This document shows positions 10,616-49,779 of a stretch of DNA of 64,000 nucleotides, piece after piece. The DNA comes from an uncultured Bacillota bacterium (GTDB taxonomy: Bacteria; Bacillota; Dehalobacteriia; UBA7702), in NCBI GenBank assembly GCA_934702375.1, contig CAKUYE010000001.1, positions 11,275-75,274 of the forward strand. The letters are read 5' to 3'. The position numbers and the translations under genes were made by a program. Position 1 is the first letter of the stretch, and the number at the start of each line of letters is the position of its first letter. The notes under the pieces are model-generated. The model made no database searches. It was given only the letters and a program-made list of their open reading frames with translations, and had not been told where the DNA came from.

Positions 10616-10691
10616 GGCGGTGTAGCTCAGTGGTTAGAGCACTCGGTTCATACCCGGGGTGTCAAGGGTTCAAATCCATTCACCGCTACCA
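10616..10691 (+). tRNA. tRNA-Met (anticodon CAT), CCA encoded
   Basis: Cloverleaf by eye: acceptor GGCGGTG/CACCGCT, D-arm GCTC-AGTGGTTA-GAGC, anticodon loop TTCATAC, T-loop TTCAAAT, 3' ACCA; one G-A mismatch in T-stem; Met versus initiator versus lysidine-Ile not resolved. Confidence 0.8.
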
Positions 10692-10694
10692 CAT

Positions 10695-10771
10695 GGCGCG
10701 TTGGAGAAGCGGCTGAACTCACCAGCCTTTCACGCTGGCATTCATGGGTTCGAATCCCATACGCGTCACCA
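10695..10771 (+). tRNA. tRNA-Glu (anticodon TTC), CCA encoded
   Basis: Acceptor GGCGCGT/ACGCGTC, anticodon stem CCAGC/GCTGG with loop CTTTCAC, T-loop GGTTCGAATCC, 3' ACCA. Confidence 0.85.
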
Positions 10772-42946: not shown

Positions 42947-43390
42947 TTATTCTCCCTGAACGTCTACGATAATTTCTGTTTTCACCTGAGGATGCATTTT
43001 GATCTTAACTTTGTACTGACCGGCAGTTTTAATATGATCTTCCAATTCGACATTGCGTTTATCAACTTTAATGCCATTTTCAGCCAATACGGCGGCAATA
43101 TCCATATTGGTAACGGAGCCAAAAAGACGATCGCCCTCGCCGGCTTTTGCCTTTAAAACATAGGTTTTTCCTTTAATAGTCTTTGCTGCAGCCTGAGCTT
43201 CTGCCAGCTTTTCAGCAGCAGCGGCTTCCTCTTTTGCCTTATTCCGTTTCCATGCTTTCATGTTAGTATCGTTAGCTTCCAAAGCCAATTTTTTAGGGAA
43301 AAGGAAATTACGTGCATAACCGTCAGAAGCATTAACCACTTCACCTTTTTTCCCGTGGCCTTTTACATCCTGTAATAAAATTACTTTCAT
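42947..43390 (-). CDS. rplI: 50S ribosomal protein L9
   Basis: 147 aa; [32 protein letters not shown] start. Confidence 0.95.
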
Positions 43391-44499: not shown

Positions 44500-44745
44500 T
44501 TACTCGGTAGTATAAGGCAGCAAAGCAACCTGTCTTGCTCTTTTAATAGCAGTAGTCAGGGCTCTCTGATGCTTTGCGCAGTTACCGGAAATTCTTCTGG
44601 GTAAAATTTTACCCCGTTCGCTGACATATTTTCTTAAGCGTTTTTCATCTTTATAGTCAATATGATCAATTTTGTCTACGCAGAAAGCACAAACTTTTCT
44701 TCTGACTCTGCGGCCGCCGCGAGGACGGGAAGTTCTTTCAGCCAT
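44500..44745 (-). CDS. rpsR: 30S ribosomal protein S18
   Basis: 81 aa; CAFCVDK...DYKD motif. Confidence 0.95.
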
Positions 44746-44762
44746 GATATGAGACTCCTTTC

Positions 44763-45167
44763 TTAAAATGGAATTTCATCCAGGGGAGTCATTTCCTCTC
44801 CCGGAAAATCGGGGGTATATCCACTGCCCCCACCGGAACTGCTGCCGTCTTTCGGAGAAAGAAATTGGACATTATCGGCAACGATTTCCGCTACCGTGCG
44901 TTTTGCACCGTCATTCCCTTCGTAGCTGCGAATCTGCAAACGACCTTCTACGCCAACCAGCTTTCCTTTGGAAAGATAGCGACCACAGGTCTCTGCCAAA
45001 CCACGCCAAACTACAACAGGAATAAAGTCCGTTTCTTTTTCACCGCGGCTATTGGGAAATCTTCTGTCTACCGCAACGGTAAAAGTTGCAACAGCAACAC
45101 CACTGCCGGTAGAACGGAGCTCCGGATCCCTGGTCAAACGACCAATTACAACGATTCTGTTCAGCAT
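44763..45167 (-). CDS. ssb: single-stranded DNA-binding protein
   Basis: OB-fold N-terminus ([15 protein letters not shown]), Gly-rich linker, acidic C-terminal DEIPF tail. Confidence 0.95.
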
Positions 45168-45191: not shown

Positions 45192-45479
45192 TTATTCGCC
45201 TTCGCGAATAACAAGAAAACGAATTACGTTGTCGGAAATTTTGAAGTTTCTTTCCAACTCTTTGGGAAGTTCTGTATCGCCATTGAAATAGCAAAGTACA
45301 TAGTAACCTTCCCGCAATTTCTGAACTTCATAAGCAAGACGGCGTTTGCCCCACTGTTCCACCTTGGTGACTTCACCACCGTTGGTAGCGATGATAGCGG
45401 AGAATCTTTCAATCGCTGCATTGACCTGTTCTTCATCTAATTCAGGACGGAGAACATACATAGCTTCATAATTGCGCAT
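45192..45479 (-). CDS. rpsF: 30S ribosomal protein S6
   Basis: MRNYEAMYVLRPELDEE start; 95 aa. Confidence 0.93.
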   Translation of the reverse strand: MRNYEAMYVLRPELDEEQVNAAIERFSAIIATNGGEVTKVEQWGKRRLAYEVQKLREGYYVLCYFNGDTELPKELERNFKISDNVIRFLVIREGE

Positions 45480-45620
45480 CGTACACGACACCTCCTTTCG
45501 GACTTTGGCCTCCCGATATCAGGAAGCAAGGAGCTAAGCGGAACACTATCGTTCCACAATAAGCCTAATTAGTATACCATAAAACAACGATAATTGCAAG
45601 GGAAACTTACCTCAAAATAA
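45480..45620 (-). promoter_or_regulatory. rpsF promoter (TTGCAA-17-TATACT) and structured 5' leader (candidate S6:S18-binding rpsF leader element)
   Basis: Minus strand -35 TTGCAA and -10 TATACT; leader has hairpin GGAACGATAGTGTTCC and CGGGAGGCCAAAGTCCGAAAGGAGG adjacent to the RBS. Confidence 0.4.
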
Positions 45621-46577
45621 GAAAATTCTCAAAGCAAAAGCAACCATGTGCCTAAGCTTTGAGAATATAACTTCAATATAACTTCATAAGAAAAATGCGT
45701 GAACCCCCTCGCCTCTTGATCTTATCATTTGTGTTTCTAAGTTTTTTTCATCAAAGGGATCTCTTTGCCAAACAGAACCAACCTGTCCGGCAGTGTTCCC
45801 TCCCGGCAATTTTTTTTGCCTAAGGAAACCGAGACCAAAGCGATCCAGAATACTATCGCCTCTGTGCATGGCACGATTCTGTTATCGCCAGCCGCAAAAA
45901 GCGAACGTTTCCTTTTTATGCCATCCGCCGTAGACAAAAGAAAACGAGCTATTTTGCAAAATACAGAGGGGATTCACCCATTTTTCCTATAAAGTTCTCC
46001 CGAAAAGAGAGATATACAGCAGCTCAAAACAATATACCTCTCCCCGGGGCCTTACATCTAATGCACGGCAATTCCGTACAAACTGCAAACAAAAGTATTA
46101 GCGTTCCGCTTAAAAATCGCATAAAGGAAAACGTATGAGCCTCCCTAATGCCGAAAGTTATAATAAAAAAATATCAGATCCTTCAGACTCCATTGAAAGA
46201 TCGGCATATTGTCTTTGTGAGTTGCCGCGGGGATATCCCATCACAAAGAAGCATTTTTTCATTACAACTTCCAGTGTGCGTGTCCTTGGCCCGGAGAGAC
46301 TCATACCTTTTCCCTTTGTTCTGCAAAACCCTTACGGGCGGCTTTCGGCAGGAGAGAATGCCGAAAGCCATTTGATACCATAGCAATATAAAGAGAAAGG
46401 AGGTAAAGTTACAAAAGCATTATGTTGTATGCGCGGTAAAAGAGTTCCGCAGCATCTGTTTTAGAAAGAGGTGCGGCACAAGGCCGCAAAATCCAAATAG
46501 TAAAAGAGATTAAAAAGAGATAAGTAAGGTTGAAAGGAGATGCAAAAAAAGATAACAGCATCTTATTTGGCAACTTG

Positions 46578-46863
46578 TAAATAAAAGAGCCCTGCTTCTA
46601 GAAAGCAGGGCATTTTCACAACGTAATTACCATGCTTCTTGCGCGGAAGCTAAGACAATAAAAGCACAAAACTCGAAATATCCTGACTTCACATCAACGC
46701 ACAGCTTCGTCTTCCCACCAATGGCAGTGACTGACAACGTCTGAAGCATGCTCCGTTTCACAGTGGCGCGACCGTTCGGGATTCTAACCCGATTTCTTCG
46801 CAGTTCCGTGATTCATTATTTATTTACTATATTATTTATACCACAATTCCAACAAAATTTCAA
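46578..46863 (-). ncRNA. candidate unclassified small RNA of about 250 nt bounded by an extended -10 promoter and an intrinsic terminator; contains a tRNA 3'-half-like segment
   Basis: Minus strand: -35 TTGAAA (46858-46863), 17-nt spacer, TGgTATAAA -10 (46835-46840); terminator GCCCTGCTTTCTAGAAGCAGGGC then TCTTTTATTT (46578-46611); no ORF; internal GGGTTAGAATCCCGAACGGTCGCGCCA resembles a T-arm plus acceptor plus CCA. Confidence 0.4.
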
Positions 46864-46953
46864 GAGAAAGTTTGCAAAAACTCATCAAATTTTTTTCGCC
46901 AAAACTACAATAATTTGTTTTACCCATAGGCAAACGAAAAATCATTCTCTGAT

Positions 46954-47139
46954 TTATGCTTTTTCTACGGCTTTTACCCGGCGCATCACTTCGTTACGAG
47001 GCAGCATTACCACATGGCCGCAGCAGCAGCATTTTAAACGGAAATCAGCGCCGATCCGCAATACCTCCCAGGTATAGCCGCCACAGGGATGAGGTTTTTT
47101 CAAACGTAAAACGTCACCTACATTCACTTCTGTTGTCAT
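46954..47139 (-). CDS. DUF951 family small protein
   Basis: 61 aa; VGDVLRLKKPHPCGGYTWEVLRIGADFRLKCCCCGHVVMLPR matches the DUF951 Cys-rich pattern; conserved partner of mscS. Confidence 0.7.
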   Translation of the reverse strand: MTTEVNVGDVLRLKKPHPCGGYTWEVLRIGADFRLKCCCCGHVVMLPRNEVMRRVKAVEKA

Positions 47140-47140
47140 G

Positions 47141-47977
47141 TTACTTCTCCTTTGTGATCACTTCTCTTACAGGGAACGGTATTTCGATACCTTCTTTCTG
47201 TAAAGCCTGTAAAATATTGGTTTTCAAATCTCGACTGATCTGCCATTTTTCCATTGGCAGCACATAGGCAAACAAACAAAGGGTCACACCGCTCTCACCG
47301 ATGGCATCCACCCCGTTTACTGTAGGTGCAGCAGAAAAAAGATCCTTGTGTTCGTTGTAATATGCCTTTGCCGTTCGACGGATCACCGCTTCGGCTTTGG
47401 AAATATCGCTGTCAAAGGAAACTTCAAAAACCTCCTTGATCCGGAAGTATCCCCGGCAGAAATTCACCACATCGGTGATGGTACCGTTGGGAACGATGAT
47501 CAATTCTCCATTATCGCCCCGAAGCCGCGTGGCACGTAAGCCAACCAACTCTACAACGCCGGTAAAACACTGATTGATGGTCACATACTCCCCAACGCCG
47601 TATTGATCTTCAAATATAATAAAAAAGCCGGCAAAAACATCTTTGATCAGGGATTGGGCACCAAAGCTCACTGCCAGACCAATAACCCCCGCGGCGGCCA
47701 TGATGGAAACAACGTTAATGCCGAGTCGGGAAAGGATCATCACCAAGGCCAAAAACGCAATCACATAGCGCACAACACTTTTCAGTACACGTTTCAGTGT
47801 GACCTGACGGTTGTTTTCTCCAATCTCCACCGTTGTTTTAAGAGCCTTATCAACGATATGAACGAAGATTTTATTTATAAGAAAGGCTAAGATCAGAATG
47901 ACCAAAACCCCTATCAACTTCACCAAAAGTCCATTGCCTTCGTACCACTGAATAAGGATATCCTGAATTTCAGTCAC
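47141..47977 (-). CDS. mscS: small-conductance mechanosensitive channel
   Basis: 278 aa; three N-terminal TM helices, then the MscS beta domain. Confidence 0.85.
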   Translation of the reverse strand: MTEIQDILIQWYEGNGLLVKLIGVLVILILAFLINKIFVHIVDKALKTTVEIGENNRQVTLKRVLKSVVRYVIAFLALVMILSRLGINVVSIMAAAGVIGLAVSFGAQSLIKDVFAGFFIIFEDQYGVGEYVTINQCFTGVVELVGLRATRLRGDNGELIIVPNGTITDVVNFCRGYFRIKEVFEVSFDSDISKAEAVIRRTAKAYYNEHKDLFSAAPTVNGVDAIGESGVTLCLFAYVLPMEKWQISRDLKTNILQALQKEGIEIPFPVREVITKEK

Positions 47978-48656
47978 CGTCTTTCACCTCCATTTTGGCA
48001 GCCAGAGTTAAAAGCCCCGCCTTTACCGTATCGTCACAGGTTTCGGCAGCAGCGCGAATAGCCGGTGCATAATCGTAGGCTTTGGCTTTTACCAGAGCAT
48101 GGGCTGCCTTCATCTTCCAGCGCCAATCCTCATTATCCAGATACTCTGCGATCAATGCACACCCCATGGGACAAGGCACAGAGGCCAGCACATCAAAGGC
48201 AGCCGTCCGTTCCTCATCATCCAAGGTTGGCAACATTTTCCCAACCTCGGCAGCGGTTTTTTCCGGGGCATCTTCACCGCAGACACTAAGATAGATAAGA
48301 CGCTGCGTAGGAGGCATATCATGAAAACATAACTTTAATAAGGCCGAAGTTTCCTCCGGATACTTTTGAAAGATTCGTTTCATATACGGTTGAATGCAGG
48401 GCTTATGCCCCATGGCAAAGGCATAAACTTCATTCTTGATCCGTTCCCAACCGTAGTCCAGGAACTCTTCTATCGCTGCTTCCGCCGTTAAGGGATCTGC
48501 TTTTCCGGCCAATGTATTCAATATTTTTTTATCAATCGGTGCGATATCTTCCGGAACACTCAGCTCCAGCCAAAGCAGCTCTTCCTTATCTTTTTTTTGC
48601 TCTTTGCGTTTAAAGAGGTTCCGAAACAACGATGTCATACCCATAAGCTTCCTCAC
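47970..48656 (-). CDS. hypothetical protein (alpha-helical repeat, HEAT-like)
   Basis: 228-aa ORF in operon-like tandem with the flanking minus-strand genes; no recognisable motif. Confidence 0.4.
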   Translation of the reverse strand: MRKLMGMTSLFRNLFKRKEQKKDKEELLWLELSVPEDIAPIDKKILNTLAGKADPLTAEAAIEEFLDYGWERIKNEVYAFAMGHKPCIQPYMKRIFQKYPEETSALLKLCFHDMPPTQRLIYLSVCGEDAPEKTAAEVGKMLPTLDDEERTAAFDVLASVPCPMGCALIAEYLDNEDWRWKMKAAHALVKAKAYDYAPAIRAAAETCDDTVKAGLLTLAAKMEVKDGD

Positions 48657-49072
48657 AATGTAATCACTTTATCAACAGAGTTCAATAATTCTATGATTTT
48701 ACCGGTAGATGCTGCGAAAAGCGGTGCAATCTCCTTTTCCCAACCATAAAGCCGCAAACTTTCTTCTGAGGCAAAAACCGTACTTCCATTTTTTTCCAGC
48801 TCTTGAAAAATCGGATTCAACACATGGCCGCGGCATAGAAAACCGGCAGCCCGATCCATCAAAATCACATACTTTGGATAACAGCGTTGATTCACCATGG
48901 AGGTAAAGAAATCAATCATCAGCTCCTTGCCTTTTTCGCCGCTGCCAATAGCATCTCCGGTAACGAAATAGCAAATACTGGGCGGAGCAGGTAAATCATC
49001 AATGGGCAAAAGATCAAAATCCTCTGCCGTTTCTTCCTGCCACTGCCGCAGCATGGGATCTTTAAAGGTCAT
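48653..49072 (-). CDS. DsrE/DsrF-like family protein (putative)
   Basis: 139 aa; CYFVTGDAIGSGE and conserved Cys pattern loosely resembling the DsrE/YchN fold; low certainty. Confidence 0.35.
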   Translation of the reverse strand: MTFKDPMLRQWQEETAEDFDLLPIDDLPAPPSICYFVTGDAIGSGEKGKELMIDFFTSMVNQRCYPKYVILMDRAAGFLCRGHVLNPIFQELEKNGSTVFASEESLRLYGWEKEIAPLFAASTGKIIELLNSVDKVITL

Positions 49073-49779
49073 GCGTTCTCATCTCCTTCAGTTTTCCCAC
49101 CTTTGCCATAACGGCATACGGCAATGCACCGACCACAGGTACGTTTACCAAAGGTCTGGCGTGTTTCCGTCAAAAAGGCATCGCAGCGTTTAAAATCAAA
49201 TCGTTGCGAAAGGTCATCCTTGGGGTTAAAGTTTTTCCCTAAAATGGCATGGGCCGGGCAGATATCCGTGCACAGGCGGCAGCTGCCGCATTGCTCCTCC
49301 ATGGGAGAATTGGCCTTCAACGGGGCATTGGTCAACACTGTACCCAATCGAAGCCGAGGGCCGGCCTCTTTCGTCACGAGAGCGCAGCTCTTGCCGATCC
49401 ATCCCAATCCACCGAGCTGAGCAGCCATGCGATGAGAGAAAGCACCGTTGTCCTTTGCTCCGGTACGCTGGGAAGCAGGGATAGGATAAGTATCGTACCC
49501 CATTTTCATCAACAGATTATTCAGCCGCAAACCGATCTCATTGATCAGAGCATTGGCAATATCGTAGTAAGCGAGGTAGGTATGTGTAGGATGCTCGATA
49601 ACCTCATCCACAACACGCTTGGGAAGATAAACACCAAAAGCAACGGCTCGCGTCAAACCATCAAAATGGTGTCCGTAAGCAGCCACAATATCATCATGCA
49701 CCGCTTCAAGATCTGCAACACCGCATAGATCTGCCCCCCATTTTTGCACATTTTCTTTTACAAGATCTGTAATATCCAT
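49069..49779 (-). CDS. 4Fe-4S cluster-binding protein, QueG/reductive-dehalogenase-related
   Basis: 236 aa; CGSCRLCTDICP and CGRCIAVC ferredoxin-type motifs in the C-terminal half. Confidence 0.45.
   Translation of the reverse strand: MDITDLVKENVQKWGADLCGVADLEAVHDDIVAAYGHHFDGLTRAVAFGVYLPKRVVDEVIEHPTHTYLAYYDIANALINEIGLRLNNLLMKMGYDTYPIPASQRTGAKDNGAFSHRMAAQLGGLGWIGKSCALVTKEAGPRLRLGTVLTNAPLKANSPMEEQCGSCRLCTDICPAHAILGKNFNPKDDLSQRFDFKRCDAFLTETRQTFGKRTCGRCIAVCRYGKGGKTEGDENA

Follow-up and report, generated by a model that had tools for sequence, protein, structure and literature searches.

A conserved cobalamin riboswitch with no evident gene behind it in the DUF951-rpsF spacer of an uncultured gut Clostridia species

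The DUF951-rpsF interval and the sequences compared

We analyzed a 64,000-nt stretch of DNA from an uncultured Bacillota bacterium (contig CAKUYE010000001.1, positions 11,275 to 75,274; hereafter, the window), in which a gap of 1.47 kb separates the stop of a DUF951 gene (46954) from the start of rpsF (45479), both on the minus strand. Read in that direction, the gap contains a promoter, a cobalamin riboswitch with an intrinsic terminator (T1), a pyrimidine-rich domain (D1), a body rich in inverted repeats (D2-D5), a second terminator (T2) and, finally, the promoter and leader of rpsF itself. The riboswitch as such is a routine annotation; the unusual part is that a conserved, apparently functional cobalamin riboswitch is found here without a gene behind it. 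The locus is laid out as follows, in the order of minus-strand transcription:

47141-47977, minus strand: mscS
46954-47139, minus strand: DUF951
46835-46863, minus strand: sigma-70-type promoter, read directly from the sequence
46825-46658, minus strand: cobalamin riboswitch aptamer (Rfam RF00174, 59.6 bits against a gathering score of 31.5)
46579-46657, minus strand: expression platform, from a terminator scan and folding
46453-46578, minus strand: D1, first domain of the predicted read-through RNA, pyrimidine-rich and conserved; candidate effector
45680-46452, minus strand: distal body D2-D5, nested long inverted repeats, no open reading frame (ORF)
45614-45666, minus strand: T2, intrinsic terminator, from folding and comparison with the sister lineage
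45480-45599, minus strand: rpsF promoter (TTGCAA at 45599-45594, 17 nt, TGgTATACT) and structured leader
45192-45479/91, minus strand: rpsF
44763-45167, minus strand: ssb
44500-44745, minus strand: rpsR

For comparison, we used 16 conspecific metagenome contigs that are 97-100% identical over the DUF951-rpsF interval (L001-L010, L096-L101) and a single locus from a sister lineage (L091), whose MscS is 94% identical to that of the window. The cohorts from which L001-L010 derive include Hadza, MERR22 and VALL22, and contigs of the species reach 310 kb. Counts of single-nucleotide polymorphisms (SNPs) within the species refer to 10 distinct conspecific copies, which, together with L091, make 11 distinct copies.

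A promoter and a full-length cobalamin riboswitch aptamer

The original prediction, made by reading the sequence, described a promoter- and terminator-bounded non-coding unit of about 250 nt on the minus strand, and the sequence features of this unit are all present. The promoter, at 46863-46835, consists of a -35 element TTGAAA (46863-46858), a 17-nt spacer ending in TGg (extended -10 TG at 46843-46842) and a -10 element TATAAA (46840-46835), with transcription predicted to start at about 46828. In L091, the -35 element and the TG are invariant and the -10 element reads TATAAC; the conserved promoter block reaches upstream to 46913. The consensus scanner did not list this promoter because it demands a T at position 6 of the -10 element.

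Although the unit had not been matched by eye to SRP RNA, 6S, tmRNA or RNase P, Rfam assigns it to RF00174, and with that assignment its novelty falls: by its covariance-model match, the unit is a cobalamin riboswitch. The match is full-length (model positions 1-189 of 189; E = 3e-12 for the whole window). It is one of three in a gathering-threshold Rfam scan of the whole window, the others being two tRNAs near 10.6 kb, and a permissive scan (E <= 10) of 45450-47000 otherwise returned sub-threshold noise only. The two tRNA genes are adjacent on the plus strand at 10616-10768 (RF00005, 61.5 and 59.7 bits).

The diagnostic elements of the family are readily located around the core string GGGTTAGAATCCCGAACGGTCGCGCCA (46790-46764, minus strand), namely, the P4/L4 hairpin UCGGG-UUAGAAU-CCCGA at 46792-46776, within which lies GGGUUAGAAUCCC (46790-46778), P5/L5 (GG-UCGCG-CC, 46773-46765) and the B12 box GCCACUG (46767-46761); the aptamer also carries the peripheral P6 extension. 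In the string that had been taken for the 3' half of a tRNA, the supposed T-arm corresponds to P4/L4, and the supposed acceptor and CCA to P5/L5 and the start of the B12 box. A tRNA relic can be dismissed, given that ARAGORN predicts no tRNA or transfer-messenger RNA in 45400-47200, no RF00005 match occurs in 45450-47000 at E <= 10, and RF00174 fully explains the sequence.

The B12 box, P4/L4 and P5/L5 are invariant in the 11 distinct copies, save for one L4 loop base in L091. Changes in L091 elsewhere in the aptamer include a compensatory C-G to U-A replacement in a stem at 46723/46719 and consistent changes in the helices at 46808/46761 and 46747/46704. Within the species, the aptamer has one variable site in 169 nt among the 10 copies, compared with 7.6 expected from the rest of the gap (P = 0.004), and the 261-nt unit as a whole folds with z = -3.4.

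The expression platform and its predicted switching

Downstream of the aptamer, the sequence folds into hairpin P13, with arms GCUUC (46650-46646) and GAAGC (46638-46634) closing the loop CGCGCAA (46645-46639), followed by T1, a perfect hairpin GCCCTGCTTTCTAGAAGCAGGGC at 46611-46589 that was found by the terminator scan and is succeeded by TCTTTTATTT, with the U-tract at 46588-46579. The perfect hairpin and U-run (46611-46579) had already been recognized as the end of the unit; they constitute the expression platform of the riboswitch. In L091, T1 carries a compensatory C-G to U-A change at 46608/46592. In silico, the platform shows the elements of a switch. The strand GAAGCAUGGU (46638-46629) mimics the 3' arm of T1, GAAGCAGGGC. 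When the T1 3' arm is withheld from folding, GAAGCAUGG pairs with the T1 5' arm, both in the window and in L091; when the full sequence is folded, T1 wins (-18.0 against -10.1 kcal/mol for the two duplexes). In addition, the L13 loop CGCGCAA is complementary, as read from the sequence, to the L5 loop UCGCG, sharing CGCG. A kissing loop between L5 and L13 is an arrangement known from cobalamin riboswitch structures.

The most economical reading of this platform is a transcriptional OFF switch, with adenosylcobalamin (AdoCbl) as the probable ligand class. With B12 bound, the L5 loop (UCGCG) would kiss the L13 loop (CGCGCAA), and P13, stabilized in this way, would hold the strand GAAGC(AUGGU), so that T1 could form and an RNA of about 250 nt would be released. 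Without B12, GAAGCAUGGU would instead act as an antiterminator by pairing with the T1 5' arm, and the polymerase would continue into the CU-rich D1 and at most to T2 (~45614), producing a read-through RNA of up to ~1.2 kb that would end before the rpsF promoter.

No coding capacity downstream of the riboswitch

No B12-related coding gene lies behind the riboswitch, and no frame shows a coding signature over the 1.1 kb downstream. On the minus strand, this interval, from T1 to the rpsF start codon, contains no ORF longer than 67 aa. Neither the gap ORFs called from start codons nor stop-to-stop translations in six frames match any Pfam family, and there is no codon-position bias in any frame of the gap on either strand. 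The description of the gap upstream of rpsF as ORF-free, in the sense of lacking a Pfam-positive ORF or a coding signature, therefore holds, as does that of the remainder as non-coding and rich in hairpins. A composite six-frame query with X-masked stops returned nothing from 5.8 billion proteins, but also missed ORF82 (see below), which that collection contains; negatives from such concatenated queries are unreliable, and this one is not used as evidence.

Two ORFs merit separate consideration. ORF82 (46135-46383, plus strand) is the ORF annotated by gene callers. Its codons differ from those of L091 by 1 synonymous and 16 non-synonymous changes, 7 of its 8 SNPs within the species fall at codon positions 1 or 2, and L001 carries a frameshifting 1-nt deletion. 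A search of 1.84 billion representative proteins recovered no homologue from outside the cluster of its own species, and two weak matches (P0160, P0161) are spurious, being translated tandem repeats. We rejected ORF82 as a gene based on the pattern of codon changes, the frameshift in L001 and the missing homologues. The second ORF starts at ATG 46561 within D1 and would encode a hydrophobic peptide. Its length is 34 aa in most strains and in L091, but 50 aa in a common haplotype, including the window, in which 4 nt are deleted. No Shine-Dalgarno sequence precedes this start codon, and the L091 and L002 types differ by about 1 synonymous and 6 non-synonymous changes. This ORF is unlikely to be coding and can be regarded as a by-product of the U/C-rich sequence.

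D1, the distal body and the second terminator

D1 is CU-rich and contains tracts resembling anti-Shine-Dalgarno sequences, CAUCUCCUUUCA and CACCUCUUUCU, which are similar to the 3' end of 16S ribosomal RNA; a third CU-rich tract, ACCUCCUUUCU (46402-46392), is located just beyond D1, in D2. A D1 hairpin at 46488-46472 is marked by a compensatory C-G to U-A change at 46483/46477.

The distal body is organized around nested long inverted repeats:

45996-45966 / 45710-45680: helix H_A, 30 bp
46316-46294 / 46145-46123: helix H_B, 22 bp
46272-46252 / 46173-46153: helix H_C, 21 bp
46048-46029 / 46020-45999: helix H_D, 19 bp

It also includes the hairpin GGCTTTCGGCA / TGCCGAAAGCC, with an 11-bp stem that is invariant in all copies; its span is 46340-46369, a shift of one base from the 46341-46369 noted originally. 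On the minus strand, the 977-nt body folds at -340 kcal/mol, compared with -252 +/- 9 kcal/mol in shuffled sequences (z = -9.3), and on the plus strand, with z = -5.6; this strong folding on both strands is due to the nested long inverted repeats. Substitutions in predicted stems leave pairing intact in 37 of 69 cases on the minus strand and in 13 of 54 on the plus strand. Positions 46199/46180, 46172/46165 and 45956/45895 show double compensatory changes, and among the repeats defined at the DNA level in the window, transition-type mismatches on the minus strand are G.U in 10 cases and A.C in 1 (p = 0.012). These patterns speak for the minus-strand RNA as the form under selection.

T2 is formed by the stem AUUCUCAAAGC (45666-45656) / GCUUUGAGAAU (45635-45625) and an inner stem, followed by the U-tract UUUCUUAUUUU (45624-45614), and ends 15 nt upstream of the rpsF -35 element (45599-45594). 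It folds at -22.5 kcal/mol in the window and at -21.2 kcal/mol in L091, where the stem is kept and the loop has diverged with an insertion or deletion (indel). The terminator scanner missed T2 because its loop exceeds 8 nt.

The modules of the body resemble miniature inverted-repeat transposable elements (MITEs), being closed by inverted repeats of 19-31 bp, and the module 46316-46123 is almost wholly palindromic. Neither the 64-kb window nor the regions flanking the fetched loci contain a second copy of any part of the insert. Searching JGI metagenomes and IMG/VR for the repeat modules gave no match, but the species is absent from the JGI set. MITE-like or palindromic elements, such as Correia or ERIC, are known to be co-transcribed into long hairpins. 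The body differs from MITEs in that it has no second copy where searched and no visible target-site duplication, and its arms are conserved well below neutral divergence.

One rearranged form of the body was identified. Scaffold L095 (738 bp, gut sample ERZ28596139) is 93-97% identical to window positions 45551-46328 and joins plus-sense 45982-46328 to minus-sense 45970-45551, which implies an inversion of about 45959-46323 (~365 bp) between short imperfect inverted repeats at 45955-45973 and 46311-46328. This arrangement appears in no long contig and could represent a strain variant, a phase-variable segment or a chimera. A smaller polymorphism involves the 11-mer GAAGTTATATT (45665-45686), at the outer edge of the H_A 3' arm, which is present in two tandem copies in the window type and in one copy in L001, L007 and L091.

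Insertion into a recurrently occupied spacer

The position of the insert was examined by surveying one genome per species with DUF951, which yielded 80 loci, in 57 of which rpsF lies downstream of DUF951. In most of these, the DUF951-rpsF spacer is 100-300 bp. The relatives closest in synteny (mscS-DUF951-rpsF; L011, L014-L016) have spacers of 137-339 bp, and the loci with the nearest MscS homologues after L091 (66% and 62% identity; L092-L094) have spacers of 80-120 bp. No B12 box was detected in this spacer in the surveyed relatives. The original prediction placed a ychF slot here. YchF, however, separates DUF951 from rpsF in one surveyed locus only (L018), and since DUF951 in the relatives leads directly to rpsF after 80-340 bp, the gap is an insertion rather than the scar of a lost ychF. 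Other long spacers, each in a single lineage, accommodate an SLH protein, an acyltransferase, a C39-like peptidase, ParA/Mrp or BioY.

Judging from these gene orders, the DUF951-rpsF spacer of Clostridia has repeatedly taken up insertions, and the promoter, the riboswitch and the ~1-kb body are together an insertion of ~1.3 kb that, across the loci compared, is confined to this uncultured gut Clostridia species and L091. By the same comparison, the rpsF promoter and leader are outside the insertion and homologous to the short spacer of the relatives. The insert has no phage match, and plasmid matches are limited to ~40 nt of the riboswitch core and come from other cobalamin riboswitches; a phage or plasmid origin is not supported by these comparisons.

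Purifying selection on the promoter, riboswitch and D1

As a neutral yardstick for the comparison between the window and L091, we used 4-fold degenerate sites in nine non-ribosomal genes on both sides of the gap, which show 0.46 differences per site (range 0.41-0.57). Against this value, the differences per site along the insert are:

Promoter block: 0.069
Aptamer: 0.059
Platform: 0.077
D1 (46579-46453): 0.047
D2 to D5: 0.08-0.12
T2: 0.22
40 nt adjoining DUF951: 0.46
12-nt spacer before the rpsF -35 element: 0.42

These differences are over-dispersed along the insert (variance/mean 2.56, reached by 0 of 2000 permutations), and a run of 83 nt (46591-46509) is identical between the two lineages (permutation p = 0.0014). 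Polymorphism within the species follows a gradient, with 5.9 SNP columns per kb in the aptamer, 7.9 in D1 and 29, 36, 48 and 57 in D2 to D5; D1, with 1 SNP column in 127 nt, is below the rest of the gap (P = 0.02). From these rates, we conclude that purifying selection clearly acts on the promoter, aptamer, platform and D1 (about 46913-46453) and that the distal body is subject to weak constraint at most.

A shared recombination tract is conceivable because the low-divergence stretch is contiguous with the slowly evolving ribosomal protein genes, 4-fold sites in rpsF-ssb-rpsR showing only 0.14 differences per site. We consider a recent tract less likely as the sole cause of the low divergence. 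The 4-fold sites of these genes are ~3-fold or more slower than those of their neighbors in independent within-species pairs as well, and the stretch encloses pockets of neutral divergence, at the left edge (0.46) and in the spacer between T2 and the rpsF promoter (0.42). Its over-dispersed divergence is a third point against such a tract.

Comparison with known riboswitches and riboswitch-gated RNAs

Compared with RF00174 riboswitches that carry the peripheral P6 and act as terminating OFF switches in Firmicutes, the element described here is complete, with a full model match, the B12 box, P4/L4, P5/L5, an L13 loop complementary to L5 and an intrinsic-terminator platform. Such riboswitches usually precede genes for B12 transport or biosynthesis or for B12-independent isozymes. 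None follows here, and the next gene on the same strand, rpsF, is 1.1 kb away, behind a second terminator and with its own promoter. The term "orphan riboswitch" is used in the literature for riboswitches whose ligand is unknown, a sense that is not relevant here. Riboswitches that gate non-coding RNAs are, to our knowledge, few (EutX/Rli55, AspocR and the trans-acting SreA type), and all come from well-studied pathogens.

EutX of Enterococcus faecalis and Rli55 of Listeria monocytogenes are made in a longer, ORF-free form only without B12 (PMC5821096; PMC8934654). Their AdoCbl riboswitch is constitutively transcribed, and ligand-induced termination removes a downstream effector site (PMC5821096) consisting of ANTAR (EutV) hexaloop hairpins with A1 and G4, classically in tandem (PMC8934654). 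The present locus resembles these RNAs in its predicted architecture, with its own promoter, riboswitch, T1 as a putative ligand-dependent terminator, conserved ORF-free extension and T2. It differs from them in lacking ANTAR dual-hexaloop sites and any sequence similarity, and its extension, of up to ~1 kb, is CU-rich and rich in inverted repeats. A single ANTAR-like tandem (45868-45835) has stems of only 3-4 bp and has lost one pair in L091. Furthermore, the window ORFs scanned are housekeeping genes (ftsH, tilS, spoIIE, the his and aro operons, dnaB, rplI, the rps genes and others), with no eut or pdu genes among them. AspocR of Listeria is reportedly an antisense RNA to pocR that is controlled by a B12 riboswitch. 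There, as proposed here, a B12 riboswitch sets the length of a non-coding transcript; unlike in AspocR, no real gene is present on the opposite strand, ORF82 failing the coding tests.

Interpretation and competing explanations

We tentatively favor, at a little short of even confidence, the reading that a B12-responsive OFF switch with its own promoter gates a non-coding RNA rather than an mRNA. The long form of this RNA would act in trans on B12-related genes elsewhere in the genome, either by base-pairing via the anti-Shine-Dalgarno-like CU tracts or as a sponge. In a more specific version, which is possible although we would rather bet against it, a captured B12 riboswitch has become the gate of a trans-acting RNA unrelated to ethanolamine use, in which D1 represses or titrates targets in low B12. 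If so, D1 would be a defined conserved effector candidate of ~125 nt, riboswitch-gated small RNAs would extend beyond the EutX/Rli55 and AspocR paradigms, and this regulatory design would seem to be more widespread and varied than the present examples suggest, occurring in an uncultured gut commensal, in a housekeeping neighborhood and without ANTAR.

Several observations weigh against a gated non-coding RNA. Within the species, the distal body is weakly constrained, evolving at about 0.2-0.6 of the 4-fold rate, and it is plastic, with indels, the 11-bp tandem-duplication polymorphism and the L095 inversion, which would break helix H_A. The covariation amounts to a handful of events in two diverged lineages and one fragment, and the excess of G.U over A.C mismatches seen in the window is absent from L091 (5:3). 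The slow divergence of the gap continues into rpsF-ssb-rpsR, where synonymous divergence is also low (0.14), so that a shared recombination tract keeps some probability. ANTAR-type hairpins number 6 (stems of 3-4 bp), compared with 5.7 expected in shuffled sequences. Finally, a duplex scan of D1 against the translation-initiation regions in the window performed no better than shuffled D1, which makes pairing of D1 with ribosome-binding sites a speculation.

The main rival, to which we assign a somewhat lower, but still appreciable, likelihood, holds that a cassette of riboswitch and cargo was inserted and the cargo gene decayed, leaving a marooned riboswitch that controls nothing useful and an inverted-repeat-rich body that is junk or MITE-like remains. 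Such decay would accord with the repeated occupation of the DUF951-rpsF slot by unrelated cargo in other lineages and the missing ORF here, with the 31-nt arms resembling terminal inverted repeats and the indels, duplication and inversion variant in the distal body, and with within-species variation that climbs away from the riboswitch, to as many as 57 SNP columns per kb. A functionless aptamer, however, would be expected to diverge at the neutral 0.46, whereas the observed value is 0.059, accompanied by compensatory changes, and T1 and D1 behave likewise. Moreover, neither a protein remnant nor residual codon-position bias is detectable in any frame, and no part of the insert has another copy in the window or the fetched-locus flanks. 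Should the locus be a relic after all, it would provide a dated example of how long an orphaned riboswitch persists.

The remaining alternatives assign the riboswitch a target at the locus itself. That it tunes the rpsF-ssb-rpsR operon, low-B12 read-through adding to or interfering with the rpsF promoter 1.2 kb downstream, or that it insulates the operon from upstream transcription, is suggested by the shared strand and by rpsF being the next coding gene; in addition, we see no terminator in the stretch from the DUF951 stop to the riboswitch, and the mscS-DUF951 transcript may therefore end at T1 and T2 as well. We nevertheless consider this improbable, given the conserved T2 immediately upstream of the rpsF -35 element and the strong promoter and leader that rpsF retains, homologous to those of insert-free relatives; we also know of no rationale for B12 control of S6, SSB and S18. 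Control of the hydrophobic peptide from ATG 46561, as a small membrane protein or a type-I-toxin-like product, strikes us as more improbable still. The frame and stop are common to L091 and 6 of the 10 distinct conspecific copies, and the first 18 codons are invariant, but the invariance of these 54 nt includes synonymous sites and so points to constraint at the nucleotide level. The 4-nt deletion in a common haplotype, that of the window, replaces the C-terminal half of the peptide, a U/C-rich sequence automatically translates as hydrophobic, and the missing Shine-Dalgarno sequence and the excess of non-synonymous changes speak against translation as well. Least probable, and hardly credible in our view, is an AspocR-type arrangement, with read-through repressing ORF82 on the plus strand. 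ORF82 is called in most conspecific contigs and corresponds to an 83-aa ORF in L091, and the plus-strand GC skew is positive over 46150-46600; but the model breaks down for want of a genuine plus-strand gene, as the codon changes, the L001 frameshift and the lack of homologues outside the species indicate.

Neighboring genes

Some further features of the neighborhood stand apart from the riboswitch. The rpsF leader (45492-45570, minus strand) contains hairpins with consistent and compensatory substitutions, for example, G-C to C-G at 45520/45515; it matches no Rfam family at E <= 10 and may be a divergent S6:S18 autoregulatory leader. Just downstream of rpsR, the 4-fold sites of rplI (42954-43390) evolve at the normal rate (0.49).

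Upstream of mscS, three overlapping genes (47970-49779, minus strand) are also present in relatives without the riboswitch insert. The first encodes a double-[4Fe-4S] protein of 236 aa that partially matches two corrinoid-enzyme families, QueG (80 bits against a cut-off of 200) and reductive dehalogenase (55 bits against a cut-off of 160); the second and third encode a 139-aa protein resembling the YedF C-terminus and a HEAT-repeat protein. Together, these three genes may encode a split corrinoid-dependent reductase.

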